A DNA stretch of 64,000 bases from Escherichia phage APCEc01: the sequence record NC_029091.1; one strand, written 5' to 3'. This document shows, piece after piece, positions 44,683-63,677 of this stretch. A model generated the notes under the pieces. It was not told the DNA's origin and made no database searches. It worked only from the letters and a program-made list of their open reading frames with translations. Made by a program: the position numbers and the translations under genes. Numbering within the stretch: position 1 is the stretch's first letter; each line of letters begins with the position of its first letter.

Positions 44683-44712
44683 GTTTACATAAAGATGATG
44701 GTGTGTTACTAT
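44683..44712 (+). promoter_or_regulatory. early promoter (GTTTAC, 18 nt, TACTAT); upstream 26 bp identical to 53125-53150
   Basis: aaataattttcacaaaacagtttaca shared with the promoter at 53143. Confidence 0.55.
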
Positions 44713-44746
44713 CATCCTATCAAATAAACAGCCTCAAGGAAATAAA

Positions 44747-45034
44747 ATGAAATCCTATAAAGAATTTATATCACCTTTTGCTAACGTTTCTACTCTGACC
44801 GAAGCAACCCTTACTTCCGAAGTTATTAAAGCAAATAAAGGACGTGAGGGTAAACCAATGATTAGCCTGGTTGACGGCGAAGAAGTAAAAGGTACTGTTT
44901 ACTTAGGGGATGGATGGTCTGCTAAGAAAGACGGCGCTACTATTGTTATCTCTCCGGCCGAAGAGACTGCACTGTTTAAAGCTAAGCATATTTCTGTAGC
45001 TCAGCTTAAAATTATTGCAAAAACTCTTCTGTAA
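44747..45034 (+). CDS. ipI: internal protein I-like, capsid targeting sequence MKSYKEFI
   Basis: 95 aa (T4 IpI size), N-terminal CTS resembling T4 consensus MKTYQEFIAE, position next to 57B. Confidence 0.6.
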   Translation: MKSYKEFISPFANVSTLTEATLTSEVIKANKGREGKPMISLVDGEEVKGTVYLGDGWSAKKDGATIVISPAEETALFKAKHISVAQLKIIAKTLL

Positions 45035-45037
45035 GTA

Positions 45038-45086
45038 GTTTACATGCTGATAGGACTATGTTATAGTAGTCCTATCAAAACAAATG
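45038..45086 (+). promoter_or_regulatory. early promoter embedded in stem-loop (PeSL-like cassette, copy A)
   Basis: GTTTAC, 17 nt, TTATAG inside 9-bp inverted repeat ATAGGACTA/TAGTCCTAT; near-identical copies at 51859 and 53423. Confidence 0.6.
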
Positions 45087-45104
45087 AGTAAATGGAGAAA
45101 TAAA

Positions 45105-45290
45105 ATGAAACGCGCTGAACTGATTCGTAATGTTGCTGTAGTAATTGCTTCAATGGCTTTTAGTTTTTCGATGTTTGTAGGATTCATTTGCGGACTACTG
45201 ACAACAACTGAAAATTCTATCTCATTGGTAGTAGCATTTCTAATCGGTTTAATCGCTATCGTTATGGATAAAATTGCAAAAGGTGAGTAA
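45105..45290 (+). CDS. small membrane protein (61 aa, two predicted TM helices)
   Basis: start chosen at ATG with SD GGAG; hydrophobic stretches VAVVIASMAFSFSMFVGFICGLL and LVVAFLIGLIAIVM. Confidence 0.5.
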   Translation: MKRAELIRNVAVVIASMAFSFSMFVGFICGLLTTTENSISLVVAFLIGLIAIVMDKIAKGE

Positions 45291-45291
45291 A

Positions 45292-45654
45292 ATGAAATAT
45301 CACGTATATGCGGATTTTGAAGCAAATCCTTCTAAAGACCCTGATTGTCGTTTGATACGCAAACCATTTGATTCAGCAGCTCAAGCATGGACTTGGATTA
45401 AATCTAAATCGCCTGGTTATATGTTCTTTGAAGTAGTCGATGACAATGGTACACTGCATCCAGAACCTACAGAAACTATTAATTTCCTTCTGTTTGCTGG
45501 TTACGACTGTTATCCTCTTGGTGGTATTGATGATCTTGTTGCTACAGGAAAAACTGTTGAGGCTCTTCGCGAAATTTATAAAAACGCAGAAGAAAATTTT
45601 GACTGGTACCAGATTGTCAGTGCACATACTTTTGAAGTGGTGGAACACTCATGA
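45292..45654 (+). CDS. hypothetical protein (120 aa)
   Basis: ORF with SD GGTGAG upstream of MKYHVYADF. Confidence 0.5.
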   Translation: MKYHVYADFEANPSKDPDCRLIRKPFDSAAQAWTWIKSKSPGYMFFEVVDDNGTLHPEPTETINFLLFAGYDCYPLGGIDDLVATGKTVEALREIYKNAEENFDWYQIVSAHTFEVVEHS

Positions 45655-45941
45655 TTCTTTACGCTAAAGTAAAATCTGTCGAGAACGGATATGAAAGCGA
45701 TCAACGTGCAGCTAAAGCACTAGTCGATGACTATGGTATTTTGACTAATTTTGAAGTTGAAAAGGTTTATATCGACCGTTCATCTTCGCAAGTTAAATTA
45801 CTCTGTGAAGATGATAAATTTAACACAGTTAACTTTGATTTCTTTATTGAAACAGAAAAAGGCCCTCTTGAATATGATATTTTCAAGAATCCTTTGAAAT
45901 TACGTTGCATTGAATATAATTACATTAATATGGTACGGTGA
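45651..45941 (+). CDS. hypothetical protein (96 aa)
   Basis: ORF with ATGA overlap to upstream gene. Confidence 0.5.
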   Translation: MILYAKVKSVENGYESDQRAAKALVDDYGILTNFEVEKVYIDRSSSQVKLLCEDDKFNTVNFDFFIETEKGPLEYDIFKNPLKLRCIEYNYINMVR

Positions 45942-45945
45942 GTAA

Positions 45946-46461
45946 ATGAATATTTGTTTAGGCAGTACAATTCCTAAGGGTTACGTAATTGATGTCACTA
46001 CTTGGGAAAATGACGGCGACAACTATAAAACTAAAACGTTGTTTGGTGTAGAAGAGCATGAGCTCCAACAGTTTAAATATCTCTTGAAGAAATTTAAGAG
46101 TCGTCATTCCAGCACTAAAGCTGAACGTTACTGTGGTAATACACCATTCAGTGATTGCTCGCTTTTAATCTATGAATACTTGGTTGAAGGACTGTTCTCA
46201 GACCAGCTTTATCCAGAATTCATTAAAAAGGTCTTTGGTATTGAAGTCGACCTTGGTAATAAATCTGAAGAAGACGAATCGCGTGTATTTGACCTGTTCC
46301 ATGAGAATGGATATTTAGTATCAGAAGGTCTCATTGATATTCTTGGCCATGCTTCTGAATATTATGATTATGATTTCTTGCGTGTAGTTGAATGTGTTGA
46401 ATTTGCTTATATTGAAGAAGAAATCGTTTTGCCGACTGTTAAAATGATTGATTTGCTTTAA
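45946..46461 (+). CDS. hypothetical protein (171 aa)
   Basis: ORF in early operon. Confidence 0.5.
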   Translation: MNICLGSTIPKGYVIDVTTWENDGDNYKTKTLFGVEEHELQQFKYLLKKFKSRHSSTKAERYCGNTPFSDCSLLIYEYLVEGLFSDQLYPEFIKKVFGIEVDLGNKSEEDESRVFDLFHENGYLVSEGLIDILGHASEYYDYDFLRVVECVEFAYIEEEIVLPTVKMIDLL

Positions 46462-46540
46462 GAATTATGTGTTATTATTAATTCATACCCTCTATTACCA
46501 AAGGTGCTCTAAAGTGCCTTTCATAATAGAAAGTTATTTA

Positions 46541-46614
46541 GGCCCTGTAGCTCAATGGTTAGCAGCAGTCCCCTCATAAGGGAAAGGTTACCAGTTCGAA
46601 TCTGGTCTGGGTCA
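46541..46614 (+). tRNA. tRNA with CAU anticodon (Met or lysidine-modified Ile)
   Basis: cloverleaf: acceptor GGCCCTG/CTGGGTC, anticodon loop CTCATAA, T-arm ACCAG-TTCGAAT-CTGGT; D-stem imperfect. Confidence 0.6.
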
Positions 46615-46620
46615 TATATT

Positions 46621-46697
<77 letters not shown>

Positions 46698-46715
46698 ACT
46701 TTAAGTGAGGAAAAT

Positions 46716-47060
46716 ATGAAAGGTAATATTTATCTGGTAGTTCATGATTTAACGTTTTATTTTAATGAACAGGATACAGTTATTTCCGACCGGTTGATTA
46801 ATTCGTTATATCAACACGCTGATTACGTTTATTTCCAAAATGAATTTGGCCATTGGAAGTTTCTTAAAAACCGTTCCGGGTTAACTAGTTTTGAATACTT
46901 TGACCGTAAAGACCTTTTAAACGAAATTCCATTACAACATCGGTTCCAGAAACGCGAATCACTATACTATTGTCGTCATATACCAAATGCTGAATGTGTT
47001 TATGAAGCGATTAATCTATGGCGTCGGCGTCGAGAGCAAATTGATGATATGCCAAAATAA
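46716..47060 (+). CDS. hypothetical protein (114 aa)
   Basis: start at ATG with SD GAGGA downstream of the tRNAs; the track ORF start lies inside the tRNA. Confidence 0.5.
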   Translation: MKGNIYLVVHDLTFYFNEQDTVISDRLINSLYQHADYVYFQNEFGHWKFLKNRSGLTSFEYFDRKDLLNEIPLQHRFQKRESLYYCRHIPNAECVYEAINLWRRRREQIDDMPK

Positions 47061-47064
47061 GAAG

Positions 47065-47372
47065 CCGGGTCGCTACCGGCAAGTCGTCGGACTGATGTTC
47101 CCTGAGTAAGGACTGGTCTTAATAAATCTTTACGATTTGTTAATATCCCCTTACATCACAGCAGAAACGGCGCACAGAATTATCGATTCGAGGAAATATC
47201 TTTGTCGTAAGCCGAGTAGCGTTTTTGACGGAACGTTCGGATATGGTCGAGATATGGCCTTTTAAAAATATTGAGTAGCGTCAACTGCTTAATAACCGGG
47301 TTCGAATCCCGGCGTTTCGTACAAACACTTGCCTTAGCAGGTGGAACCCCGACAAGGTTGCCGCAAGGCTTA
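47065..47372 (+). ncRNA. putative small stable RNA region (position of T4 rnaC/rnaD species 1 and 2 RNAs)
   Basis: about 300 nt with no plausible plus-strand ORF, tRNA-like T-arm CCGGG-TTCGAAT-CCCGG at about 47287, ends at a terminator. Confidence 0.3.
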
Positions 47373-47400
47373 GCCCCTTCCGAAAGGTCGGGGCTTTTTG
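47373..47400 (+). terminator. rho-independent terminator
   Basis: GCCCCttccgaaaggtcGGGGC followed by TTTTTGG; same motif family as 47916 and 63611. Confidence 0.6.
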
Positions 47401-47444
47401 GCATAATAATAAATAGATAAGTTAATTAACTTAGGAAAAGCAAC

Positions 47445-47909
47445 ATGAAATCATACGCTGAATTTTTGACTGAACAATCTAGTTCAGATGTAAAAGCCGC
47501 TGCGATTGCAGCAATTCAAGCAGGTAAATATTCTTACAAAGACGCCTCTGATGAAGAACGTTTCCGTTTTATTAGAGATTTTAAAGCCGAAGGTTTTACT
47601 AATGCTAATACTGTTAGCCGAGTTTTTAAAAGCCTAGCTGCATCAGGTGAATTGTTCCAGAAAGCTACAGGTAAAGCACCTGCGCCAAAAACAGACCCTA
47701 AAGCAGCTCAAGAAAAAAATATCGCCAAAGGAATTATTTCTAAGTATGAAGCAATTCTTAAAGAGCTTTTAGTAATCAAAACAGAAGGCCAGAAACTGGC
47801 ACGAGCACATAGCTTCAAAGATAATCCTCACGCTCATAGCCTTGAGTATGTTGAAGATATCCAAAAACTTATTAAAGACCGTATCTGGTCTGCTAAACAA
47901 ATTAAATAA
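47445..47909 (+). CDS. internal-protein-like protein with capsid targeting sequence MKSYAEFLTE (154 aa)
   Basis: N-terminal CTS motif, lysine/alanine-rich. Confidence 0.55.
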   Translation: MKSYAEFLTEQSSSDVKAAAIAAIQAGKYSYKDASDEERFRFIRDFKAEGFTNANTVSRVFKSLAASGELFQKATGKAPAPKTDPKAAQEKNIAKGIISKYEAILKELLVIKTEGQKLARAHSFKDNPHAHSLEYVEDIQKLIKDRIWSAKQIK

Positions 47910-47915
47910 TAGAAT

Positions 47916-47944
47916 GCCCCTTCCTTATGGTTGGGGCCTTTTGG
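47916..47944 (+). terminator. rho-independent terminator
   Basis: GCCCCttccttatggttGGGGC then CTTTTGG. Confidence 0.6.
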
Positions 47945-47975
47945 TATCTAGGGCATAAAAATATTTCATAAAGAT

Positions 47976-48004
47976 GTTTACTTCTTCTAAGGACATGATA
48001 CTAT
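47976..48004 (+). promoter_or_regulatory. early promoter (GTTTAC, 17 nt, TACTAT)
   Basis: consensus spacing; leader tagacttatcaacc...gagga resembles other cassettes. Confidence 0.55.
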
Positions 48005-48032
48005 AGACTTATCAACCATAGAGGAAAATGTT

Positions 48033-48536
48033 ATGAGTCTTTACACTGAACTGAATAAAAAATCTGAAGAATCTGCTGAAACTATTTTTAAAAACGTGCA
48101 AAAGCGTATTTTGGAAAAGATGTACGATGCAGCATCTAAAGGTGAAAAATCTTGCCGGTTTCCGATGAGGTGTTCTTCTGATTTATGCGCAAATACTATT
48201 GAATGGCTGGAAAGTGAAGGTCTTACGGTAGAGAAAAACCCGGCGACTTCTATTGACGGCGAATCATATATTAGTATTTCTTGGGATAAATCAAGGGTAG
48301 AAGAGAAAGATGGTGATTGGGTTGTAGATGTTAAAACTTCTGATGGTGGACGTTCTGTTGAAGTTTCAGCTGTAGTTAAAGGCACCCACGAACAAAGGAC
48401 TTGGGGTTGGGGTGGTGAAGAAAAAGAAATTGTTCTTAGTGTGATTGCCAGGTCAACTAGTAATAAAATTGCACAAAGCATCATTGACGCTGCAATTGCT
48501 GAAGCAGAAAAAATTTGCAAAATTAAAAATAAATGA
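48033..48536 (+). CDS. hypothetical protein (167 aa)
   Basis: ORF with promoter and SD; the overlapping minus-strand ORF is a shadow. Confidence 0.55.
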   Translation: MSLYTELNKKSEESAETIFKNVQKRILEKMYDAASKGEKSCRFPMRCSSDLCANTIEWLESEGLTVEKNPATSIDGESYISISWDKSRVEEKDGDWVVDVKTSDGGRSVEVSAVVKGTHEQRTWGWGGEEKEIVLSVIARSTSNKIAQSIIDAAIAEAEKICKIKNK

Positions 48537-48537
48537 T

Positions 48538-48565
48538 GTACAAACGCCAAGGATGGTGGTACTAT
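48538..48565 (+). promoter_or_regulatory. early promoter (TGTACA -35-like, TACTAT -10)
   Basis: -10 and leader identical to cassette at 12248. Confidence 0.5.
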
Positions 48566-48601
48566 AGACTTATCAACTACAGAGGAGTAAACAAAATGAC
48601 T
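48560..48601 (+). repeat. 42-bp promoter/leader/start cassette, second copy
   Basis: identical to 12248-12289. Confidence 0.8.
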
Positions 48602-48760
48602 ACTTTAATTATTTGGTTCGATGAAAATGAAGAAACATACTGTGTGAATATTGGTGAAAGTCCAATGCCTGAATTTGAATCCTCGGATAAAAACTCTGTT
48701 GTATCTTGGGCTGAAGGTTATAAAGCAGCTAAAGGTGACGTTGAAATAATTTACATCTAA
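48596..48760 (+). CDS. hypothetical small protein (54 aa), not in ORF track
   Basis: ATG preceded by SD GAGGAG from the cassette; MTTLIIWFDENEETYCVNIG... Confidence 0.45.
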   Translation: MTTLIIWFDENEETYCVNIGESPMPEFESSDKNSVVSWAEGYKAAKGDVEIIYI

Positions 48761-48778
48761 GTAAGTTTATGTTATAGT
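48750..48778 (+). promoter_or_regulatory. early promoter (TTTACA, 17 nt, TATAGT)
   Basis: sigma70-like hexamers with 17 nt spacer. Confidence 0.5.
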
Positions 48779-48806
48779 AATCACATCAAATCAAGAGGAA
48801 AATAAA

Positions 48807-49034
48807 ATGGCTAAAGTTAGTATTGATGTCGTTGATTATGAATACACCGAAGAAGTTATTCGCAACCGACACCCTGAAGTTCGTATCGATTCAGTCCAAG
48901 ATTCCAAGTTCTGGACAACTGAGCTTAATCTGAGTGGTCCTTATGAAGCTGTTAAGAAGTTCATGGTTGAAGAATACTGCGAAGGCATGCACCCCGAAGA
49001 CGCCAAGTTTTATGTCAATTTGATTAAAAAATAA
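48807..49034 (+). CDS. hypothetical protein (75 aa)
   Basis: ORF with SD AGAGGAA. Confidence 0.5.
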   Translation: MAKVSIDVVDYEYTEEVIRNRHPEVRIDSVQDSKFWTTELNLSGPYEAVKKFMVEEYCEGMHPEDAKFYVNLIKK

Positions 49035-49069
49035 TTTACAAACTCTTGAGAGCAGAGTATAATGCTCTC
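49035..49069 (+). promoter_or_regulatory. early promoter (TTTACA, 17 nt, TATAAT) with -10 inside inverted repeat GAGAGCA/TGCTCTC
   Basis: consensus hexamers and 7-bp inverted repeat flanking the -10. Confidence 0.55.
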
Positions 49070-49104
49070 ATCGGATAACAAACCACCAATTGAAAGGTAA
49101 TAAT

Positions 49105-49698
49105 ATGAACACACTGAAGAAACTTGTTGAATTCATCCGCACTAAACTTGGTACTGCTATGGCTAAAAATCTGACTGTCGAAGAACAGTATAACGCAGCT
49201 GCAGATAAGTTGATTACCCAAATCAAAGAACTAAAAACGGCTTCTGTTAAATCTATTAATGAAGAAAAACGTATTCGCGAACTTGTTAATGAAAAGAACA
49301 AACAAGCCGCTTCTAAGGAACGTGAAATTCGTAAGCTCTTGGCTGAAGGACAAGATGTTACCATGCATGCTAAGCTTGGTCTTCTGTATCGTCGAACTGC
49401 CGAACAACTTAATACAAAGGCTGACGGGTATGCCGCTATGCGAATTGAAATTGCTCGTAAGGTGGTTGAACTTGATGATGCTCGTCAGAATCTGGCAATC
49501 AAACTCGAATACATTCGTGAAACTCGAGCAGCCAATGCCCTTGGTATCTCTACGGCTGATGATGTAATTGAAATCGCTGCACTGACTAAGGTTGATATCG
49601 AAGACACTCTGACTCGTGTTGAAACGTTCAATGGCACTCCAGCCGGTGTCGAAACCACTTCTGCTGATGTACAAGAATATATTAACTCTTTGAAATAA
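49105..49698 (+). CDS. hypothetical coiled-coil protein (197 aa)
   Basis: ORF, predicted mostly helical; the minus-strand ORF 49231-49749 is a shadow. Confidence 0.5.
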
Positions 49699-49705
49699 AA
49701 TAATA

Positions 49706-49730
49706 CGGAGGACTCCGGTCCTCCTTTTGG
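49706..49730 (+). terminator. rho-independent terminator
   Basis: GGAGGACtccgGTCCTCC followed by TTTTGG. Confidence 0.6.
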
Positions 49731-49747
49731 ATAATAAAGGAGTTAAC

Positions 49748-50350
49748 ATGCGAAACCAAAATAATGATATTGACTCAATGTTCGAAGAGTTCCGAGATAA
49801 GGTAAATCCACCTACGTCTTTAGTTGATTCATTACGATATGTTGCAACCGGACGTAAATGGTACTGGTCGTCTTCTTATGAGACTACTGAGAAAACGGCT
49901 AGCCATAGCAGAAAATCTTTATTAGCCCCAGGTATTATGATTCATGATATCGGAGCTATTGCTAAACTAGTTGCAGACCATGATATTAGATTCACCGATT
50001 TCGTTGCTCCTACATGGTCTGTTTGTTGTTTAAACACTGAATGGGAATATATCAGCGAACGCTCTAAAGATTATTATGGTTTTAGAGATAAGCTTCTGAG
50101 GTCTAACATGTTTTATATTGATACAGAAGTTCTGGTCAATAATAAAAAATACTACTTCACTTTAATCGTCGATTCTGAAACTATGTATGAAGGCGGGCCT
50201 TTGCTTAAGAGAGTTGATGCTTTAAGTGCTATTGATGCGCTTTATGAAACTATGGTTGTTAGTCCTAATTTCACTAACAATTTAATCCTTGAGCAATTTA
50301 TTATGGAATGTAGAGAATATGTCAAAGCCAACCCTGTACATGCCAATTAA
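49748..50350 (+). CDS. hypothetical protein ending in F-I-M-E-C-R motif (200 aa)
   Basis: ATG with SD AAGGAG; C-terminal ...LEQFIMECREY. Confidence 0.5.
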   Translation: MRNQNNDIDSMFEEFRDKVNPPTSLVDSLRYVATGRKWYWSSSYETTEKTASHSRKSLLAPGIMIHDIGAIAKLVADHDIRFTDFVAPTWSVCCLNTEWEYISERSKDYYGFRDKLLRSNMFYIDTEVLVNNKKYYFTLIVDSETMYEGGPLLKRVDALSAIDALYETMVVSPNFTNNLILEQFIMECREYVKANPVHAN

Positions 50351-50714
50351 GCCCTGGGCATACGAATACAAGCGTAAATTAATCCCAAATGAAGTACTAT
50401 TTGGCCCTATTTTAGCTTTAGCATTTTTAATCTTTATGATTATAGGAGCTGTTTTAGATTCCAATAAAGTTATATCGTCTGATGCAGCATTTTCATTAAT
50501 GTTCGTCGCACCACTTATTGTACCGTTTTTATTAATGCCTATTAATTGGGTAGGATATTGGCACCAAGGCCGTCATCACAGAGCTCGAGTAAGAGAATGG
50601 AAAGTTCAGTGCGCAAAAGCCCAAGCTCAGTATGATGAAGCTGTTAAAAAGTATGAATATGAAGAAGCTATGGAATTCGTTAAGGAAATAAGATGCAAAA
50701 GCCTCAACTCTTAA
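50319..50714 (+). CDS. membrane protein, F-x-K-E-x-R-C C-terminal family (131 aa)
   Basis: two predicted TM helices; ends ...AMEFVKEIRCK; start uncertain (50289, 50319 or 50340). Confidence 0.45.
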   Translation: MSKPTLYMPIKPWAYEYKRKLIPNEVLFGPILALAFLIFMIIGAVLDSNKVISSDAAFSLMFVAPLIVPFLLMPINWVGYWHQGRHHRARVREWKVQCAKAQAQYDEAVKKYEYEEAMEFVKEIRCKSLNS

Positions 50715-51052
50715 CCGTATGGCCTTCTCTTGGTGAGAACATTCTAATTTTTATTATGAGTATTGGCATGGGATTTGCCTTTGGATTAGTTGGATTTCTT
50801 ATTGACGGCGTTGTGTTAGGATTTATAGGGAACACTGGTGGATTCACAGACCAATGGCAGGACTTACGGTATACCCAAGCCTTTGCATCCATCGCATCAT
50901 TTTGTACTGTAGTCTATTTTTACTACGATTTTATAAACCACAACAAGAAAAATAAAAAGGTTTACGCTTCTCAAATGATTAGTTATAATGAACTCCTAGC
51001 TAGACGTGAAAATGAAACAATCGAAAACTTTATTAAGGAATGTAGAAAATGA
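50693..51052 (+). CDS. membrane protein, NFIKECR C-terminal family (119 aa)
   Basis: 2-3 predicted TM helices; ends ...ETIENFIKECRK. Confidence 0.5.
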   Translation: MQKPQLLTVWPSLGENILIFIMSIGMGFAFGLVGFLIDGVVLGFIGNTGGFTDQWQDLRYTQAFASIASFCTVVYFYYDFINHNKKNKKVYASQMISYNELLARRENETIENFIKECRK

Positions 51053-51354
51053 GTAAGATTATTGAAATTAAAGTACCAGAGTTTAATGATGCCAAATCCG
51101 CTTCAGATGCAATTTATAAACTTCTGAATCAAGCTGAACGTATCGAAGAAGAAGCAACAAAGATCGCAGACCAATATGCCGTATCATTTTCTGTAGGTGA
51201 TTATGGTAGCGGTCGTACTTATTATCCTAAGGGTGAAATCGTATCCCAGTGGATGAAAGATGAAATTGAAAATAATGGCGGCGATGTTAAGCGTGAAGGT
51301 AATGGATACGTTATTACTGAAGGTGCTTGGGTTTCGTCTTCTGCGTTGTGCTAA
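51049..51354 (+). CDS. hypothetical protein, GWVSSS-x-x-C C-terminal family, member 1 (101 aa)
   Basis: ends ...EGAWVSSSALC; ATGA overlap with upstream gene. Confidence 0.5.
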   Translation: MSKIIEIKVPEFNDAKSASDAIYKLLNQAERIEEEATKIADQYAVSFSVGDYGSGRTYYPKGEIVSQWMKDEIENNGGDVKREGNGYVITEGAWVSSSALC

Positions 51355-51363
51355 GGAATCATT

Positions 51364-51636
51364 ATGTCTAAAGAACAAACCGAACTGGCTGAAGCTGTAG
51401 CAAAAATCTATGCAGCTATTGAGGCTGCCAAAGAAATTGCTGATAAACAAAACACAACATTCAACTTGTACCCAGCTTATGGTATGGGTGGAACCTATCA
51501 TTCACCCGGACATCTTAAAGCCGATCTTGAACGTTGTACAAAAAACGGCTATGCTGAATGGGCTGACGTTTACCAATACGACTACAACCTGAGCCTCGAA
51601 ACTGGTGGTTGGGTCGCATCTTCTCACACTTGCTAA
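51364..51636 (+). CDS. hypothetical protein, GWV-x-SS-x-x-C family, member 2 (90 aa)
   Basis: ends ...GGWVASSHTC; SD AAGGAA. Confidence 0.5.
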   Translation: MSKEQTELAEAVAKIYAAIEAAKEIADKQNTTFNLYPAYGMGGTYHSPGHLKADLERCTKNGYAEWADVYQYDYNLSLETGGWVASSHTC

Positions 51637-51645
51637 GGAAACAAT

Positions 51646-51843: not shown

Positions 51844-51847
51844 AACA

Positions 51848-51896
51848 GTTTACAACAAGATAGGGCTATGTTATAGTAGTCCTATCAAAACAAATG
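51848..51896 (+). promoter_or_regulatory. early promoter in stem-loop (PeSL-like cassette, copy B)
   Basis: GTTTAC, 17 nt, TTATAG; gatagggctatgttatagtagtcctatcaaaacaaatg. Confidence 0.6.
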
Positions 51897-51905
51897 GAGT
51901 CCACA

Positions 51906-55668: not shown

Positions 55669-55669
55669 T

Positions 55670-56436: not shown

Positions 56437-56437
56437 T

Positions 56438-56489: not shown

Positions 56490-56494
56490 AAATT

Positions 56495-56908
56495 ATGACT
56501 CGTATCAATTTAACACTTGTTTCTGAACTGTCCGACCAACATCTTATGGCTGAGTATCGTGAATTACCACGCGTATTTGGTGCAGTCCGTAAACATGTTC
56601 AAAACGGTAAACGTGTAAAGGATTTTAAAATCTCTCCAACATTTATCTTAGGCACAGGTCACGTAACATTCTTTTACGACAAACTCGAATTTTTACGTTT
56701 ACGTCAAATCGAGCTAATCGCTGAATGCTTGAAACGTGGTTTCAAAATCAAGGACACGACTGTCCAGGATATTTCCGACATTCCTGTAGAATTTCGTAAT
56801 AATTACGTCCCGTCCGAAGCGTCCATTGCGATAAGTCAAGCACGCTTAGATGAAAAAATTGCTCAACGTCCGACTTGGTACAAATACTATGGTAAATCAA
56901 TTTACTAA
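56495..56908 (+). CDS. denV: endonuclease V (pyrimidine dimer DNA glycosylase / AP lyase)
   Basis: 137 aa from [35 protein letters not shown]...; near identical to T4 DenV as recalled. Confidence 0.92.
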
Positions 56909-56915
56909 GGAAAAA

Positions 56916-57176
56916 ATGAAAATGTATCAAGAATTTATCATTGAAGTAGATGCCAAAGACCCCAAATTTAAAGTTAAAGCTTTCATTGGTGATGCGGAAG
57001 ACTTTGGCTCATTAAAACGTAATGGGTATTCTTTCTTGGGTGGCGATGGTAAAGAAATCAACACCTATGCAAAACGTAGTGAAATTGCTTATGTTGTAGT
57101 AAGTCCTAAAGTAGATGTTGACGATATTGGATACGATTTTAACAACTTCGGAATTATTTCTGGCGGTAAAGCTTAA
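56916..57176 (+). CDS. internal-protein-like protein with CTS MKMYQEFIIE (86 aa)
   Basis: CTS motif, SD AAGGAAA. Confidence 0.55.
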   Translation: MKMYQEFIIEVDAKDPKFKVKAFIGDAEDFGSLKRNGYSFLGGDGKEINTYAKRSEIAYVVVSPKVDVDDIGYDFNNFGIISGGKA

Positions 57177-57182
57177 ATTGTT

Positions 57183-57212
57183 TACGCTTAAGTATTAATA
57201 TGGTATAATTAC
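57183..57212 (+). promoter_or_regulatory. early promoter (GTTTAC, 18 nt, TATAAT)
   Basis: consensus hexamers. Confidence 0.55.
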
Positions 57213-57239
57213 TCTATCAAAACAAACAAGGAAACAAAA

Positions 57240-57554
57240 ATGAAAACGTATAAAGAATTTATTGCAGAATCCGCCAACCAACGCGTTGAAGGTGGTTATA
57301 TTTGGATTGAACAAGTTGAGCCACCGAGCCGCACTTCTACAGGTAAATGGAAAATTACTGTTGACGGTCCTGGCGGTAAACGTAGGACTCTTAAAGAAAT
57401 TAACGGGTACTATGAAGAAGCTCTTTCGGATGCAGGAACTTACATGATGCAAATCATGATTAAAAACCCTGAAAACCGTTTTGCAGCTAAAGTCTTCCGT
57501 CGTATTGGTAATAAACTTTATGATGCATACTCTAAAAACTTCCCTAAAGAATAA
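57240..57554 (+). CDS. internal-protein-like protein with CTS MKTYKEFIAE (104 aa)
   Basis: N-terminus almost identical to T4 CTS consensus. Confidence 0.6.
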   Translation: MKTYKEFIAESANQRVEGGYIWIEQVEPPSRTSTGKWKITVDGPGGKRRTLKEINGYYEEALSDAGTYMMQIMIKNPENRFAAKVFRRIGNKLYDAYSKNFPKE

Positions 57555-57579
57555 CATAAATTAAAACAATAGGAACAAA

Positions 57580-57909
57580 ATGAAAACATATCAGGAGTTT
57601 ATCACTGAAGTTACATTATCTGCGGAACAGAAAGCTGCTATCGAAGAAGGTAAAAATCCCAAAGTAACATACAAAGTAAATAGTAAAGGCGTTTTTGATG
57701 GCTTGGTTCAAGACCCTGAATTGAAAAAAGCTCTTTCTAAAACTAATGCGTACTTTGCTCCTAAATTTAACACAGCCGGTGTACTTATTGGATTGGACGT
57801 ATTCAACTCTAAAGGTGTTCTATCTAATGCCTTTGGTTATGCCGCTAACAAAATTACCAAAGCAGCATGGGAATCCAATACCAAACAAGCTCAAAAGCCT
57901 AGAGTATAA
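57580..57909 (+). CDS. internal-protein-like protein with CTS MKTYQEFITE (109 aa)
   Basis: N-terminus matches T4 CTS consensus. Confidence 0.6.
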   Translation: MKTYQEFITEVTLSAEQKAAIEEGKNPKVTYKVNSKGVFDGLVQDPELKKALSKTNAYFAPKFNTAGVLIGLDVFNSKGVLSNAFGYAANKITKAAWESNTKQAQKPRV

Positions 57910-58082
57910 TTCTTGCCTAATAAAGGGAAACGCAACCTCTCCTCATGAACGTCGAGTCCTCTGAGTGATGTACCTTTTCCAACCTGTAATAAGGTCGAGC
58001 CCAAGTGCGGTAATGGGTTTACATAGCGAGTCGAAGGACCTAACATGTGCCACGGAATGGCCCAAACCTTAAGAGAAATAAT

Positions 58083-58622
58083 ATGAGAACATTTTTAACT
58101 GGACCTTATCTATCCCTGATGAATGCTTTTACACACCATTCTGATGCTAGAGTAGAAGAAATTTGTAAGAACGGTTATGTCCCACCATTTGAAGACGTAC
58201 TCAAGCAGTACTGTACACTTCGTTTAGACGGCGGCCGACAATCAGGTAAATCAATTGCTGTGACTAACTTTGCTGCTAATTGGCTGTATGATGGCGGAAC
58301 AGTTATTGTTCTTTCTAATACTTCAGCTTATGCTAAAATTTCTGCTGGCAACATTGAAAAAGAATTTTCGCGTTATTCTAGCGACGATATTCGATTCCGT
58401 TTATTTACTGATTCTGTTCGTAGTTTTATTGGCAATGAAGGTTCTAAATTCCGTGGATTAACGCTTTCTCGTATTCTGTATATAATTGACGAGCCTATTA
58501 AAGCTCCTGATATGGATAAGATTTACAATGTACATATTAAAACAGTCCAACACTGTTGCAAAAGCAAATATTGCATCGGCGGTAATGCTCGTCCTCAATT
58601 TTTTGTGATTGGAATGCAATGA
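58083..58622 (+). CDS. P-loop NTPase of unknown function (179 aa)
   Basis: Walker A GGRQSGKS and Walker B-like ILYIIDEP; first ATG at 58083 (track start is GTG). Confidence 0.5.
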   Translation: MRTFLTGPYLSLMNAFTHHSDARVEEICKNGYVPPFEDVLKQYCTLRLDGGRQSGKSIAVTNFAANWLYDGGTVIVLSNTSAYAKISAGNIEKEFSRYSSDDIRFRLFTDSVRSFIGNEGSKFRGLTLSRILYIIDEPIKAPDMDKIYNVHIKTVQHCCKSKYCIGGNARPQFFVIGMQ

Positions 58623-58927
58623 TGACCACTATTGAAGTTTTTGAATATTGTTATAACAGCCCAGTATGCAATAAAAGGGCCCTTGTAGAAAATTACGAGA
58701 TTTACCATTTTAAACCTAAACGATACCGTTTGACTAAAGGTCCGTTCGCAGGGCAGCAGGTTCTTTGTACTGCTCCTAATGCACGGTTGATGACTAGTAT
58801 TCCACATTTCAAAATGGAATTTATTGACGGGCCATTTAAGGGATTAATCACTCAAAGTTTAATGGCGTTTAATTCCGACCCATTTTTGATTAAAGAAAAA
58901 ACTTGGATAAATTTATTTTCTAATTGA
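58619..58927 (+). CDS. hypothetical protein (102 aa)
   Basis: ATGA overlap with upstream gene. Confidence 0.45.
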   Translation: MMTTIEVFEYCYNSPVCNKRALVENYEIYHFKPKRYRLTKGPFAGQQVLCTAPNARLMTSIPHFKMEFIDGPFKGLITQSLMAFNSDPFLIKEKTWINLFSN

Positions 58928-58933
58928 GGTTAT

Positions 58934-59296
58934 ATGAAAGCATATCAAATTCTTGAAGGCACACACAAAGGCACTATTTATTTTGAAGACGGTACTCAAG
59001 CCCGGATTATTGTCTCTAAGACTTTTAAAGAAGACGCTATTGTAGACCCGGAAATTTTCTACGGTTTGCATGCCCGTGAAATTGAAATTGAACATCACCC
59101 TAAAGTTAAAATTGAAGGTGGTCAACATCTGAACGTTAACGTTCTGCGTCGTGAAACTCTAGAAGATGCAGTTAAGCATCCAGAAAAATATCCGCAGCTG
59201 ACCATCCGTGTATCTGGTTATGCAGTTCGCTTTAACTCTCTGACTCCGGAACAGCAGCGCGACGTTATCGCTCGCACCTTTACTGAGAGTCTATAA
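58934..59296 (+). CDS. grcA: autonomous glycyl radical cofactor (GrcA/YfiD-like; T4 Y06I-type)
   Basis: 120 aa; C-terminal glycyl radical motif [27 protein letters not shown]; C-terminal ~57 aa match E. coli GrcA as recalled; host-like codon usage in 3' half. Confidence 0.8.
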
Positions 59297-59520
59297 TGGC
59301 TAAATTGATTATAGAAGGGTCTGAAGATGTTTTAAAATGTTTTGCCGCCTGGTTTAGTTGCTCAGGCGAGCAATCATTCACTGAAGCATTTAGAATGGGT
59401 GATATTACCGGAAACTATCCGGCAACTGATATCACTGTACGTGGATATGGTATTAATGAGCCTATCCAATTGGTCGAATATGACCTTGCCACTGATGAGG
59501 AAATTCCTTATGTCGATTGA
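59296..59520 (+). CDS. hypothetical protein (74 aa)
   Basis: overlapping stop/start with grcA-like gene. Confidence 0.45.
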   Translation: MAKLIIEGSEDVLKCFAAWFSCSGEQSFTEAFRMGDITGNYPATDITVRGYGINEPIQLVEYDLATDEEIPYVD

Positions 59521-59776
59521 AGACATCAAAGGCTACAAGCCGCATACCGATGATAAAATCGGTAAAGTGAACGCTATTAAAGATGCAGAAGTCCGTCTTG
59601 GATTGTTGTTTGATGCTCTGATTGAAGAAGCATATATCTTGAAAGAAAATGAAACAGAGCAACAAACCAAAGAAGATATGGATGCAGTGCAGGCTCTTAA
59701 GTATGCTAAGCAACATCTAAAAGAAGCCAGCATGTGGGCGTGTCGTGCAGTATTTCGACCTGAGGAAAAATACTAA
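59511..59776 (+). CDS. hypothetical protein (88 aa)
   Basis: ATG at 59511; longer track ORF from 59342 overlaps the upstream gene and is less likely. Confidence 0.4.
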
Positions 59777-59991
59777 TGGCTTCTACTATTACTGGGTTAT
59801 TGGACTTTCAAGAAAAGGTCAACAAAATTTGTAGTGAATACTTAAAGTATCTTGAAGAAGACCTTGAAGATTGTAAGGAAGAAGGCGAAGAAGACTATGC
59901 TGACCAGCGTCGACGCCAAATCGAAGAGATGAGGCATTTCGCCAATATGGTATCTAAAGAATCTTGGGCTTTAACTCCATTTTATCAATAA
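59776..59991 (+). CDS. hypothetical acidic protein (71 aa)
   Basis: ATGA-type overlap, SD AGGAAA. Confidence 0.45.
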   Translation: MASTITGLLDFQEKVNKICSEYLKYLEEDLEDCKEEGEEDYADQRRRQIEEMRHFANMVSKESWALTPFYQ

Positions 59992-59995
59992 AGTA

Positions 59996-60044
59996 GTTTA
60001 CTTCTCCTCTAGTTGTGTTACTATAGACCTGTCAACTAGAGGAG
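59996..60044 (+). promoter_or_regulatory. early promoter (GTTTAC, 17 nt, TACTAT) inside perfect 12-bp inverted repeat that includes the SD
   Basis: CTCCTCTAGTTG at 60004-60015 and CAACTAGAGGAG at 60033-60044. Confidence 0.6.
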
Positions 60045-60052
60045 AAATCAAA

Positions 60053-60511
60053 ATGACTATCAATTCAGACGTTTTTATCCGCCGTAATAAACTCCGTCGA
60101 ATCTTTGAAACGGAGTTCCGCAAAATAAATGCCGGTATAAAAGATGCTGCAAAGTCTCTTGGACTACCAGGCTTTCATATCAAGTATTCTCAACATCTCT
60201 TAGATCGTGCCATCCAGAGAGAAATAGATGAGAATTACGTTTTTGAATTATTTCATAAAGTAAAAAATCATGTTAAAGAAGTTGCAGAATTTTTATCAAT
60301 GCCGGCACGTCCAGATGTTGATGAAGATTTTGTCGAAGGTGTCGAATATCGCCCAGGCCGTTTAGAAATAACTGATGGAAATCTTTGGTTAGGACTTACA
60401 GTTTGTCGCGAAAATCCGGCATTCAAAATGAAGACTCTTCAATGCAGAATGGCTATTATTAACAATAAACGACTACCAGGAAAAGCTTCTAAAGCAGTGA
60501 TTAAAATCTAG
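60053..60511 (+). CDS. regB: RegB site-specific endoribonuclease
   Basis: 152 aa; MTINSDVFIRRNKLRR...KYSQHLLDRAIQREIDE...LQCRMAIINNKRLPGKASKAVIK matches T4 RegB as recalled. Confidence 0.9.
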   Translation: MTINSDVFIRRNKLRRIFETEFRKINAGIKDAAKSLGLPGFHIKYSQHLLDRAIQREIDENYVFELFHKVKNHVKEVAEFLSMPARPDVDEDFVEGVEYRPGRLEITDGNLWLGLTVCRENPAFKMKTLQCRMAIINNKRLPGKASKAVIKI

Positions 60512-60519
60512 AGGTAAAC

Positions 60520-61062
60520 ATGAGAAAAGCACTACTCGCTGGTCTATTTGCTCTTTCATTATCAGCACATAGCTCCGAGCATACTTTTAGTAATGTCCAA
60601 CTCGATAACTTGAATTATGCTTATCAGTTTGGGGAACAGTTTTCTAAGGATGGAAAATTTAAAACGCATGAAAATATGCATAAGAAAGGACTTGGATACA
60701 TAATGGCCGCAATACTATGGCAGGAATCATCTGCCGGTATTAATCTTAAAGATAAGAAAGGTCACCATGCGTATGGAATGTTCCAAAATTATCTACCGAC
60801 AATGAGGGCAAGAATTAACCAGCTTGGTTATAATATGACTGATGCCCAAATTAAGAAAATGCTATCTAAGCGGTCTAATTCAGCCAGATGGGCTTATATC
60901 GAATTTTCTTATTGGTTAAATATACATAACGGGGATATAAGAAAAGCTATATCCTCATATAATGCGGGATGGAAGACAAGTGCCGGAAGTAAATATGCTT
61001 CTGAAGTCCTAGAAAAGGCTAATTACCTTAAATCAAATAAACTACTGGAAATAAAAGAATGA
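60520..61062 (+). CDS. secreted lytic transglycosylase-like protein (SLT domain)
   Basis: signal peptide MRKALLAGLFALSLSAHS; SLT motifs E-S (WQESSAG), AYGMFQ, YNAG. Confidence 0.6.
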   Translation: MRKALLAGLFALSLSAHSSEHTFSNVQLDNLNYAYQFGEQFSKDGKFKTHENMHKKGLGYIMAAILWQESSAGINLKDKKGHHAYGMFQNYLPTMRARINQLGYNMTDAQIKKMLSKRSNSARWAYIEFSYWLNIHNGDIRKAISSYNAGWKTSAGSKYASEVLEKANYLKSNKLLEIKE

Positions 61063-61406
61063 CCAAAATGTTGGCTTTAATAGTTGGCTTGGTTTCATTT
61101 AACGCTCTTGCTAATACTACATATACTGATGTAACGGAGTATACAAACAGAACGGCGTCTGATTACTGTGGTAAAAGTCAAGAGTGTAAAGTAGATTTTT
61201 CACAAAAATTGTTATATGCGTATAAAGACGGAGAAAAAGACGGGGCGTCTAGTAGGTTCAAGGCGTCTACCTTAATTAAAAGATACTATAAAAAATGGCA
61301 AATATTAGAATGCTCGGTGGCGGAACCTAAAGATAAGGCAGCATGCAATTCTATGGTGGACCGTCTAGTTGACTCTTATAATAGAGGACTTGCAGCAAGT
61401 GATTAA
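61059..61406 (+). CDS. secreted small Cys-containing protein (115 aa)
   Basis: signal peptide MTKMLALIVGLVSFNALA; four Cys residues. Confidence 0.5.
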   Translation: MTKMLALIVGLVSFNALANTTYTDVTEYTNRTASDYCGKSQECKVDFSQKLLYAYKDGEKDGASSRFKASTLIKRYYKKWQILECSVAEPKDKAACNSMVDRLVDSYNRGLAASD

Positions 61407-61866
61407 AAACTATATCAAGGGCGATATTGTCGCCCTGTTTTCTAAAGGTAATAATATTGCTCATGGGTGTAATTGTTTTCATACAATGGGCGCGGGTGTG
61501 GCAGGACAATTAGCAAAGGCTTATCCAAAAATTCTGGAAGCCGATAAACTTCAAACCGAATTCGGAGACGAGTCTAAACTCGGGACTTATTCGGTTTATG
61601 AAAAATATTTTAAGACCCATAAAGCTTATTGCTTTAATCTTTATACACAGTTTGAGCCGGGACCTAATTTTGAGTACTCTGCTTTAATGAATTGTATAAT
61701 AGAATTAAATGAATTCGGAAAGAATAAGATAATAAAGCCTGTAATTTATATGCCAAGAATTGGTGCAGGTATTGGTGGTGGAAACTGGGATGTCATCGAA
61801 GAGATTTTAGATACGTATTCTACTAAACTAGAAATTGTGATTGTTGATTGGGAACCGTTATTATGA
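61399..61866 (+). CDS. macrodomain-like protein (ADP-ribose binding/processing fold), probable GTG start
   Basis: motifs GNNIAHGCNCFHTMGAGVAGQL and PRIGAGIGGGNWDVIEEIL resemble macrodomain N-x(6)-GGGV and P-x-I-S-T-G-x-x-G signatures; no in-frame ATG before the first motif. Confidence 0.5.
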   Translation: MIKNYIKGDIVALFSKGNNIAHGCNCFHTMGAGVAGQLAKAYPKILEADKLQTEFGDESKLGTYSVYEKYFKTHKAYCFNLYTQFEPGPNFEYSALMNCIIELNEFGKNKIIKPVIYMPRIGAGIGGGNWDVIEEILDTYSTKLEIVIVDWEPLL

Positions 61867-62075
61867 ATATACATTATCCACATCCATATGACCCAAAGAA
61901 TAAGGCAGTAATTATTCGTCAATGGGAACGCATTTGTCGTACCAAATGTCCAATTAATAGTCCACATGATGTAGATAAAGACTACATCGGAACATTCGTT
62001 GAATATACCTTTATTGATAAGAAAGGCCGTAAACAACATGTAGAAGAATATTGCTTAAAGGTGACATGGCTATGA
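61863..62075 (+). CDS. hypothetical protein (70 aa)
   Basis: ATG overlapping upstream stop (ATGA). Confidence 0.45.
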   Translation: MNIHYPHPYDPKNKAVIIRQWERICRTKCPINSPHDVDKDYIGTFVEYTFIDKKGRKQHVEEYCLKVTWL

Positions 62076-62278
62076 GTCAAACAAAAATTCTTACAGGTGC
62101 TAAATGCGAAAAATGCGAATGGCCTGTAGTTTTTGCTTTATGCAATGACGAAATGGCTTGTGATTTTGATTATTGGTGTTACTGTTCGAACAAAGGTTGT
62201 AGCAATCATAAAGGTGAAGGGTTTTACTCAGGATTTTACCCTTACCCAGATTTCGTTAAAGAAGGTGAACCTAAATGA
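62066..62278 (+). CDS. Cys-rich small protein, putative zinc ribbon (70 aa)
   Basis: C-x2-C (CEKCEW) and further Cys pairs; start 62066 or 62072. Confidence 0.45.
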   Translation: MAMSQTKILTGAKCEKCEWPVVFALCNDEMACDFDYWCYCSNKGCSNHKGEGFYSGFYPYPDFVKEGEPK

Positions 62279-62457
62279 AATTGACTAAAGAAGAGAAAAC
62301 TAAACTGTTCGAACTTATCCATGACCTATTGGATGAGCAAGCAGCCACCAATGCGTACGATGAATATGCTCCTTTGACGGACGAAGAATATCAAGCATTG
62401 TTGGAATCATTTGACAGGAAAGAACAAGAACTCATTGACTATGTGAATTCACTATAA
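62275..62457 (+). CDS. hypothetical acidic protein (60 aa)
   Basis: ATGA overlap. Confidence 0.45.
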   Translation: MKLTKEEKTKLFELIHDLLDEQAATNAYDEYAPLTDEEYQALLESFDRKEQELIDYVNSL

Positions 62458-62466
62458 GGGACTCTT

Positions 62467-63048
62467 ATGGCTAGTTTAATTTTTACCTATGCCGCTATGA
62501 ACGCTGGTAAGTCTGCTTCATTACTTACTGCTGCACATAACTATAAAGAACGTGGCATGGGTGTATTAGTTCTTAAACCGGCTATTGATACTCGCGATTC
62601 AAAAGGTGAAATAGTCTCTCGTATTGGTATTCGTCAGGATGCCAATATAATTACAAAAGACATGGATATCTTTGAATTTTATAAATGGGCTGCAGCACAA
62701 AAGGATATTCATTGTGTATTTGTTGACGAAGCTCAGTTCTTAACTACTGAAAAGGTGTATCAACTTAGTCGTATTGTTGACGTGTACAATGTGCCGGTAA
62801 TGGCATATGGACTACGAACAGATTTTAAAGGTAATCTATTTGAAGGTTCTCAAGCATTAATGGCTATTGCCGATAAGCTTGTTGAACTTAAAGGTGTCTG
62901 TCATTGTGGTAAAAAGGCCACAATGGTAGCTAGAGTCACGGAAGACGGACTTCCAATTACAGATGGCAGTCAAATTGAAATTGGTGATACCGATAGATAT
63001 GTGTCATTATGCCGGAAGCATTGGAATGATTTGACAGGGTTGTTATAA
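62467..63048 (+). CDS. tk: thymidine kinase
   Basis: 193 aa; P-loop AAMNAGKS, Walker B FVDEAQF, C-terminal zinc ribbon CHCGKK...C; matches T4 Tk as recalled. Confidence 0.92.
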   Translation: MASLIFTYAAMNAGKSASLLTAAHNYKERGMGVLVLKPAIDTRDSKGEIVSRIGIRQDANIITKDMDIFEFYKWAAAQKDIHCVFVDEAQFLTTEKVYQLSRIVDVYNVPVMAYGLRTDFKGNLFEGSQALMAIADKLVELKGVCHCGKKATMVARVTEDGLPITDGSQIEIGDTDRYVSLCRKHWNDLTGLL

Positions 63049-63075
63049 ATACTAATATCTAACCAAGAGGTATAT

Positions 63076-63288
63076 ATGCAGCAATTAAACGAAAGACAAC
63101 TTCGTAATCTTACTGTAACCCAATTAGATGAAATCCGAAGAGAATTAGGACATTCTATTTCTCATTTAAACGAGGATATCCGTCAAACTGGTTCTAAAGC
63201 TGATTATACACGCAAGCGCAAGCTGGAAAAATACCTCACAGATGTTAAGGCCGTCCAAAGGCGAAAAATAAATACTGGCCAAAATTAA
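63076..63288 (+). CDS. hypothetical protein (rI.-1 position)
   Basis: 70 aa between tk and rI. Confidence 0.5.
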
Positions 63289-63300
63289 CAGGAGGCCTAT

Positions 63301-63603
63301 ATGGCCTTAAGAGCGATAGCTGTCATAGCGATGCTGGGGTTTTTTGCAGCAACAACTCCTATCGTTGGTACTGCACATATCGACCCATATTTTGATAACT
63401 TTATGGAATCAGGGATTAAAAACGTATATACTTTGTTTGAAATTCAAAATGTCGAGAATTCTGAAAAATTCTATAAGTATATGGCAAAGCATTACAAAAA
63501 TAGCCCCTGTGATGATGCATTTGAATGTCATGAACAAGGCATAAAAACTGCCAGACAATTTGCCGAGTTCATGAAAATAAAATTAGAGCCTACATCTATC
63601 TAA
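63301..63603 (+). CDS. rI: RI lysis inhibition regulator (antiholin), secreted
   Basis: 100 aa; N-terminal signal/SAR segment; DPYFDNFMESGIK...CHEQGIKTARQF resembles T4 RI as recalled; position next to tk. Confidence 0.7.
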   Translation: MALRAIAVIAMLGFFAATTPIVGTAHIDPYFDNFMESGIKNVYTLFEIQNVENSEKFYKYMAKHYKNSPCDDAFECHEQGIKTARQFAEFMKIKLEPTSI

Positions 63604-63610
63604 TTTACTA

Positions 63611-63638
63611 GCCCCTTCCGAAAGGTTGGGGCTTTTTG
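63611..63638 (+). terminator. rho-independent terminator after rI
   Basis: GCCCCttccgaaaggttGGGGC followed by TTTTTGG. Confidence 0.6.
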
Positions 63639-63648
63639 GCATCTATCA

Positions 63649-63677
63649 GTTTACTTCTCCTCAGGTTGTGTTATAGT
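63649..63677 (+). promoter_or_regulatory. early promoter (GTTTAC, 17 nt, TATAGT) with CTCCTC...GAGGAG inverted repeat
   Basis: consensus hexamers; partial inverted repeat includes the SD. Confidence 0.55.

Follow-up and report, generated by a model that had tools for sequence, protein, structure and literature searches.

Among the elements described so far, the promoter early stem-loops (PeSLs) of the phages RB49 and phi1 come closest to those treated here. They are composite intergenic elements made up of an A/T-rich part, a −35 and a −10 hexamer, a stem-loop lying between the two or overlapping the −10, a Shine-Dalgarno (SD) sequence and an ATG (Arbiol et al., 2010, PMC2839356). As far as can be gathered from that paper, PeSL-like elements with weaker, AT-rich stems had been seen earlier on T4 early promoters at two internal-protein loci (Repoila et al., 1994). 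PeSLs of T4 and PST, with the consensus TTTACW-N17-TAYWAT, lie at the ipI and ipII/ipIII loci and in the e-tk region and were connected with gene exchange between close relatives (Comeau et al., 2014, PMC4122927). The present analysis concerns positions 44683-63677 of a window of 64,000 nucleotides (nt), which is the whole stretch of Escherichia phage APCEc01 (NC_029091.1) that was analysed and to which all positions refer. An initial annotation had proposed that PeSL-like promoter/stem-loop cassettes bound the small accessory open reading frames (ORFs) of this region and mark it as a hyperplastic one, in which novel ORFs are shuffled as modules. Every testable sequence-level feature of a PeSL is indeed present, and the cassettes are a further instance of the kind described in the three papers, in a genus which these papers did not analyse. 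Taken as a whole, it appears probable that they are early promoter cassettes which carry hairpins formed in read-through RNA and which serve as recombination patches for the exchange of modules.

With the PeSLs of RB49 and phi1 the cassettes share the preferential location in hyperplastic DNA beside indels and replacements of close relatives, the small ORFs that they flank and recombination junctions inside the element. They also show the same order of parts as in RB49, namely A/T-rich upstream DNA, −35 and −10 at a distance of 17-18 nt, a stem-loop at −35/−10, an SD and an ATG. However, the RB49 elements have near-perfect TTGACA and TATAAT hexamers and polyG/polyC stems with terminator behaviour (PMC2839356), whereas the −35 is here of the GTTTAC type and the stems are AU-rich, variable and without a U-tract. 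The consensus, loci and gene exchange reported for T4 and PST all recur, and both internal-protein loci ascribed to Repoila et al. (1994) in PMC2839356 fall, by that account, inside 44683-63677. Going by a figure legend of PMC4122927, the stems of T4 and PST are drawn immediately upstream of the promoter; most stems of APCEc01 lie inside it, and an upstream terminator is found at two of 14 promoters.

A second comparison concerns the T4 genes e, soc, 49 and I-TevI, whose SD is locked in a helix of long transcripts, with a late promoter within the hairpin giving rise to a short, translated transcript (PMC3014915). Likewise, some cassettes (class B below) have a promoter inside the hairpin and are predicted to free the SD in a short transcript. 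The late promoters of T4 delay expression, whereas an early promoter in this position would limit translation to the immediate-early transcript from the gene's own promoter. None of the hairpins holds the late sequence TATAAATA, which occurs once in 44-64 kb (63044); the embedded promoters are of the early GTTTAC/−10 type. The lysozyme gene e of the window has its SD (GGGAGG) in a 12-bp hairpin (55642-55670, ΔG −16.3), the known T4 e-type translational hairpin. Similar to integron gene cassettes, small promoter-associated ORF modules are swapped at short repeated boundaries, but neither the integrase nor the attC sites of integrons are found here, and the exchange would rely on general or microhomology-driven phage recombination. 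No earlier description of an anti-SD gate at an early promoter was found in the accessible literature, beyond which key older T4 papers lie, and this covariation-backed arrangement may be under-described. A literature search for T4 transcript-end mapping and for additional PeSL papers yielded nothing relevant.

Early promoter cassettes of the accessory region

The interval 44.2-64 kb is the tRNA-e-denV-regB-tk accessory region of a T4-like Mosigvirus. According to annotated relatives and T4, its gene order is 57B, ipI, trna.4/.3/.2, tRNA-Met/Arg, rnaD/rnaC, e.x genes, nudE, e, internal-protein genes, denV, vs.x, regB, vs, tk and rI, with all genes of the series from 57B to rI on the + strand. 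Escherichia phage vB_EcoM_SCS57 is 99.0% identical over the full length of 44000-64000, and many other Mosigvirus (RB69/JS09-like) phages are 95-98% identical to this interval in alignments split into three to eight pieces.

Promoters were searched with the strict pattern GTTTAC-N17-18-TANNNT, and 100 dinucleotide-preserving shuffles served as null. The window contains 15 matches (13 on the + strand, 11 inside 44683-63677), an approximately 7-fold excess over the 2.0 ± 1.45 expected (shuffle maximum 6). A slightly relaxed pattern gave 17 matches on the + strand and 0 on the − strand. In 44683-63677, where at least twelve T4-type early promoters had been claimed, 14 were counted, all on the + strand and at a spacing of about 17 nt typical of sigma-70-type early promoters; 13 of them are intergenic and one (50960) lies within the e.3 homolog. 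A strict match at 58017 was left out of this count as a degenerate relic.

Twelve of the 14 promoters have a TGn extended −10, the A+T content of the 25 nt upstream is 73% (62% region-wide), and a CTATCAA motif near the expected start is common to most promoters. The SD and start codon of the downstream gene stand at the 3′ end of the cassette, which occupies the intergenic space. T4 early promoters have been described as combining UP, −35, TGn and −10 elements (PMC2988021), with which this architecture agrees. Judged by their sequence, the elements are T4-type early promoter cassettes consisting of an A/T-rich UP part, a GTTTAC −35, a TGn −10, a CTATCAA +1 region, an SD and an ATG, and each of them would head a small early gene in the hyperplastic accessory region. 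The T4 GenBank record has no promoter features annotated in the corresponding region, so that no mapped promoters could be transferred. A permissive Rfam scan of 44-64 kb gave only two tRNAs and no family matching the cassettes.

Each cassette was folded from just past the −35 to the ATG and compared by z-score with dinucleotide shuffles. Ten of the 14 fold far more stably than their shuffles (z −2.0 to −5.7), in line with the earlier statement that many promoters have their −10 or SD in an inverted repeat. Two geometries occur. In class A, the 5′ arm belongs to the spacer, and its partner comprises the end of the −10 on the 3′ side together with the +1 region. In class B, an anti-SD arm starting 1-2 nt past the −35 pairs with the ribosome-binding site, and the rest of the promoter lies in the loop. 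The individual features are as follows (positions after −35 are hexamer starts).

44663-44749, + strand: cassette before an ipI-like gene; −35 44683, −10 end 44712, ATG 44747; class A hairpin 44694-44703 / 44707-44716, z −2.0; the T4 ortholog differs in stem sequence with complementarity kept
45018-45107, + strand: cassette before the trna.4 homolog; −35 45038, ATG 45105; class A hairpin 45048-45059 / 45066-45077, z −5.4; one of three near-identical copies, covarying across genera; right breakpoint of the ipI replacement in L007
47956-48035, + strand: cassette; −35 47976, ATG 48033; class B, anti-SD arm 47982-47989 with SD region 48019-48026, z −2.4; breakpoints 47970 and 48024
48516-48599, + strand: cassette; −35 (ATGTAC) 48536, ATG 48597; no significant hairpin; breakpoints 48519 and 48603
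48729-48809, + strand: cassette before a frd.3-like gene; −35 (ATTTAC) 48749, ATG 48807; without hairpin; breakpoint 48785
49014-49107, + strand: cassette before the e.6 homolog; −35 (ATTTAC) 49034, ATG 49105; class A hairpin 49047-49054 / 49063-49070, z −3.5
50940-51051, + strand: intragenic promoter towards the 3′ end of the e.3 homolog, preceding the gene at 51049; −35 50960; without hairpin
51828-51909, + strand: cassette; −35 51848, ATG 51907; class A hairpin 51859-51869 / 51876-51886, z −3.6; second copy of the repeated cassette
53121-53475, + strand: mobile module of UP and promoter 53143 (class A hairpin 53150-53160 / 53168-53178, z −3.5), a 66-aa ORF (53211-53411), promoter 53412 (class A hairpin 53422-53433 / 53440-53451, z −5.0, third copy), SD and ATG 53470
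56418-56498, + strand: cassette before denV; −35 56438, ATG 56496; class B hairpin 56444-56453 / 56482-56491, z −4.3; covariation in T4 and other genera
57160-57242, + strand: cassette before an internal-protein-like gene; −35 57180, ATG 57240; without hairpin; replacement breakpoints of the gene at 57262/57263, immediately past the first ~8 codons
59976-60055, + strand: cassette before regB; −35 59996, ATG 60053; class B 14-bp hairpin 60002-60015 / 60033-60046, z −5.7; covariation; right breakpoint (59985/59987) of vs.3 replacements
63629-63707, + strand: cassette before a mobD.2a-like gene; −35 63649, ATG 63705; class B hairpin, TTCTCCTC paired with GAGGAGAA, ΔG −14.2, z −2.3
12204-12289, + strand: like cassette outside 44683-63677; −35 12224, ATG 12284

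The repeats reported at the outset were all found again. The two arms of the 12-bp inverted repeat stand at 60004 (CTCCTCTAGTTG) and 60033 (CAACTAGAGGAG) and belong to the somewhat longer regB helix, and GAGAGCA at 49048 faces TGCTCTC at 49063. The cassette of about 35 nt, GATAGG[AG]CTATGTTATAGTAGTCCTAT[CT]AAAAC, is present at 45049, 51859 and 53423, and the first and third of these copies share an identical 27-mer. The 26-nt upstream block AAATAATTT(T)CACAAAACAGTTTACA has one copy at 44664 and another at 53125, which differ by an indel of 1 nt. Moreover, a 46-nt block from the −10 to ATGACTA is identical at 12243-12289 and 48555-48601, which are 36 kb apart, and the ORFs behind it (89 aa and 54 aa) are unrelated. 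This block, shared by the 12224 and 48536 promoters, looks like the product of cassette transfer or conversion.

Selection on the hairpins and their predicted behaviour in RNA

On the evidence of shuffle controls and covariation the hairpins are selected. Starts of 34 promoter-less genes have a mean z of +0.24 (Mann-Whitney p = 2.5e-4 versus the cassettes), and a chance origin of promoters and hairpins was rejected by the shuffles. In T4 and in other T4-like genera the orthologous cassettes have different arm sequences which are still complementary. For regB, the arms are TTCTCCTCTAGTTG / CAACTAGAGGAGAA in the window, TTTTCCTCTTGACTG / CAGTTAAGAGGAGAA in T4 and ATCTCCTTTTAGTTGTGT / ACACACTAAAAGGAGAT in another genus. 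Chimeras whose 5′ and 3′ halves come from different orthologs lose 4-7 kcal/mol compared with the native cassettes (regB p = 2.6e-5, trna.4 p = 4e-5, denV p = 0.013, e.6 p = 0.025). In a register defined independently of structure, in which the −35 hexamer is the reference point for the 5′ arm and the SD core that for the 3′ arm, 84% of the cells pair, versus 42-55% after a slide of 1-3 nt, and several positions show three to five types of pairs. A consensus fold of the class B cassettes by MAFFT and RNAalifold had the SD arms out of register and gave only seven pairs; the chimera test and the anchored pair count were used instead.

Further loci came from a search of IMG/VR anchored on the ORF 52174-53130, which yielded one close relative; the remaining loci belong to other genera and served the analysis of covariation and not that of breakpoints. 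Across 134 distinct cassettes (window, T4 and 29 loci of other genera) the mean ΔG is −13.3 kcal/mol, and −7.1 kcal/mol with the spacer alone shuffled. In 34 of the 45 strong cassettes the sense RNA folds more stably than the antisense (Wilcoxon p = 3.6e-5), and 69 of their 726 pairs are G·U pairs. The sense-strand bias and the G·U pairs point to a structure of RNA rather than to a palindrome of DNA. This bears on the idea that the inverted repeats are signals in DNA, either operators for a phage protein which shuts off early promoters or cruciforms which stimulate recombination. The repeats do overlap the −10, and the shut-off mechanism of T4 early promoters has been described as not completely understood (PMC3014915). 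However, arms that vary between cassettes and genera while remaining complementary do not fit a single sequence-specific protein, and a palindromic operator was rejected as the arm sequences are not conserved. Together with the properties that favour RNA over double-stranded or cruciform DNA, this leaves a DNA signal very improbable.

Transcripts from the own promoter would start about 7 nt past the −10, inside or beyond the 3′ arm. Such a transcript would not include the 5′ arm, so that the hairpin could form only in RNA reading through from upstream. In class B the ribosome-binding site serves as the 3′ arm; RNA reading through would then be translationally silent for the gene in question, and expression would come from its own promoter only. 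The predicted probability of an unpaired SD falls from the own to the read-through RNA from 0.71 to 0.15 (47976), from 0.41 to 0.02 (56438, denV), from 0.49 to 0.20 (59996, regB) and from 0.38 to 0.16 (63649). By prediction and covariation, the SD and/or AUG would be paired in upstream-started transcripts of these four cassettes. It would not be paired in those of class A, and class A and hairpin-free cassettes show a smaller change of SD accessibility or none. In class A the 3′ arm is the −10/+1 region, which would place the hairpin directly upstream of the SD in read-through RNA, where its most likely role would be attenuation or protection of the upstream message at its 3′ end.

That class A hairpins leave the SD free also fits the view that the stem-loops are terminators or attenuators which mainly halt upstream transcription rather than control translation. 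Several of the hairpins are annotated as rho-independent terminators (by WebGeSTer) in the SA79RD record, and the stem-loop of an RB49 PeSL reduced expression of a downstream lacZ about as much as the rrnB T1 terminator (PMC2839356). Yet no U-run follows any of the promoter-embedded stems, which are AU-rich and have CAAAAC or ATCAAC tails, and a simple terminator scan finds just separate GC-rich elements. Because a U-tract is missing, these stems are not canonical intrinsic terminators, and this form of the explanation was rejected. Furthermore, the loops of class B (17-25 nt) and the precise coincidence of its 3′ arms with the SD across genera would not be needed by a terminator. A role mainly in termination is therefore considered possible but rather unlikely.

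A hairpin acting on translation of read-through RNA might be of wider occurrence. Tentatively, most early promoters of the Tevenvirinae, including those of T4, may carry a selected hairpin present only in read-through RNA, and the anti-SD version may be a promoter-coupled translational gate, a general insulation device that makes modules independent of their context. Such context-independence of promoter+ORF modules, if the gate exists, would explain their shuffling between loci and genera. It would also mean that translation of denV, regB and genes like them is confined to transcripts of their own early promoter, which would refine models of early-gene timing in T4-type phages.

Exchange of modules among relatives

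Breakpoints were compared with 11 Mosigvirus relatives (95-99% identity) over 42.5-64 kb. The gene content between cassettes, which the initial annotation had suggested comparing among related phages, differs by 16 distinct indel or replacement events. Promoter-cassette footprints make up 5.2% of the region and contain 13 of the 44 breakpoints (binomial p = 2e-7); other breakpoints lie in terminator copies, in the first ~10 codons (MK[S/T]Y.EF) of internal-protein genes or simply at junctions between genes. By comparison, a single continuous alignment covers 100% of the neighbouring 20-kb structural block in 27 of the 30 best relatives. Records with a coverage of 80% or more number 557 for this block, versus 76 for 44-64 kb, and it (22-42 kb) has 0 promoter-pattern matches on the + strand and a single one on the − strand (41993). 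The variable segments of the relatives carry cassettes of their own.

Six genes (44747, 47445, 56155, 56916, 57240 and 57580) have an N terminus resembling a capsid-targeting sequence, MK[S/T/M]Y.EF, as in the internal proteins of T4. In relatives, the bodies of internal-protein-like genes are replaced right after these ~10 codons (breakpoints 44766/9, 57262/3 and 57610).

The sequences at the junctions say more than the statistics do, and several junctions are hybrid cassettes. In PTK and five others (six of the 11 relatives) 262 bp (53150-53411) are missing, and the one cassette left behind is hybrid, with the crossover located within the two −35 hexamers. As regards mini-circles excised by recombination between neighbouring PeSLs, this deletion is the only indirect footprint. 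In L007, a hybrid cassette combines those of 48536 and 48749. SA79RD contains a 291-bp insertion of promoter and ORF at the −35 belonging to the 49034 promoter, with 15 nt duplicated on its flanks. An insertion of 594 bp in PTK has the terminator repeat of 63609 on both sides. Both moskry and L007 have a deletion of 250 bp, one end of which coincides exactly with the intragenic −35 (50960). The module 53121-53475 has also been relocated: it is 92-93% identical at the nucleotide level in the Tequatrovirus phages G50 and PYps55T, in which it stands at a different locus, directly after a nucleotidyltransferase gene whose Mosigvirus ortholog lies beyond the window end. In contrast, the RegB and DenV proteins of T4 are only 77% and 55% identical to the copies in the window. 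The cross-genus homology of the module stops at its two cassettes. The events, the hybrid junctions, the relocated module and the unbroken structural block support the proposed modular shuffling in a hyperplastic region.

The cassettes might nevertheless be merely strong ordinary promoters without a special role in recombination, their likeness being due to constraint by the polymerase and the breakpoints to selection for whole genes. Junctions with a promoter were struck in nine of 13 cases and those without one in 12 of 37 (Fisher p = 0.024), so that promoter-less junctions are hit as well, and the repeat families D1, D5 and D6 are largely promoter consensus. However, crossovers inside shared hexamers or −10/+1 blocks yield hybrid cassettes, and the identical blocks of 27-46 nt, which precede unrelated ORFs, include spacer and leader positions free of polymerase constraint. 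As the homology between the genera moreover ends exactly at both cassettes of the module, this explanation seems improbable.

More probably, the cassettes, which share 15-60 nt, would form homology patches together with the repeated terminators and the first codons of internal-protein genes, and phage recombination would use these patches to delete, insert or swap modules of promoter and ORF. As each module brings its own promoter and an insulating hairpin, it would be functional in any context of the early region.

A number of points weigh against this account of promoters, hairpins and exchange. Four of the 14 cassettes (48536, 48749, 50960 and 57180) have no significant hairpin compared with shuffles, and a hairpin is thus not obligatory. 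The automatic assignment to classes A and B is lenient, with 67% of spacer-shuffled controls still receiving a class, so that only the energies are trustworthy and the class labels merely indicative. The role of class A is the weakest step, as the SD is not occluded and a U-tract is missing. Start sites, read-through and any termination are inferences from sequence. With regard to exchange, promoter junctions are only moderately enriched in breakpoints relative to other gene junctions, the events lack phylogenetic independence, and surviving breakpoints would already be driven into intergenic DNA by selection for intact genes. Finally, about one third of the events have no promoter cassette (a tRNA insertion, 45347|45651, 54954|55174, 61856|62267 and 62077|62455).

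For Mosigvirus (RB69-like) phages, which are widely used coliphages, the comparison documents the turnover of accessory genes at the level of junctions, with promoter+ORF units swapped at repeated regulatory sequences, even across genera. The cassettes mark natural plug-in sites for phage engineering and for the annotation of therapy phages.

Repeated terminators and further observations

Apart from the promoter-embedded stems, a GC-rich terminator-like repeat (GCCCCTTCCGAAAGGTYGGGGCTTTTTGG) occurs in three copies, two of them directly upstream of early promoters. All three consist of a GC-rich stem followed by a U-run, as in an intrinsic terminator.

47371-47404, + strand: intrinsic-terminator-like repeat (family D7), GCCCCTTCCGAAAGGTCGGGGC + TTTTTGG, following the rnaC/rnaD region; in mar005P1, LNA2, OZ035759 and moskry a gene replacement has its left breakpoint here
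47914-47947, + strand: variant terminator-like copy directly upstream of the 47976 promoter, forming a terminator-promoter composite
63609-63642, + strand: terminator-like copy with 97% identity to 47371-47404, immediately before the 63649 promoter

The noncoding segment 47061-47404 is 92% identical to T4 rnaD and rnaC (stable RNA species 2 and 1) and includes a tRNA-like GGTTCGAATCC arm; it matches no Rfam family. In phage ST2 (L040, 4118-4189), an additional tRNA-Asn without counterpart in the window stands between tRNA-Met and tRNA-Arg (breakpoint 46579|46618).

The degenerate promoter-like site at 58017 lies in an apparently noncoding gap (57910-58083), of which the part 57979-58075 shares 81% identity with the 5′ portion of the T4 vs.8 coding sequence. 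In SA79RD and MM02, a replacement segment contains an intact class B promoter cassette immediately upstream of vs.8. Outside 44683-63677, a strict-pattern early promoter at 9382-9411 is followed by a leader of ~88 nt with a GC-rich hairpin (CCGAGATAGCTCGG) and an ATG at 9499.

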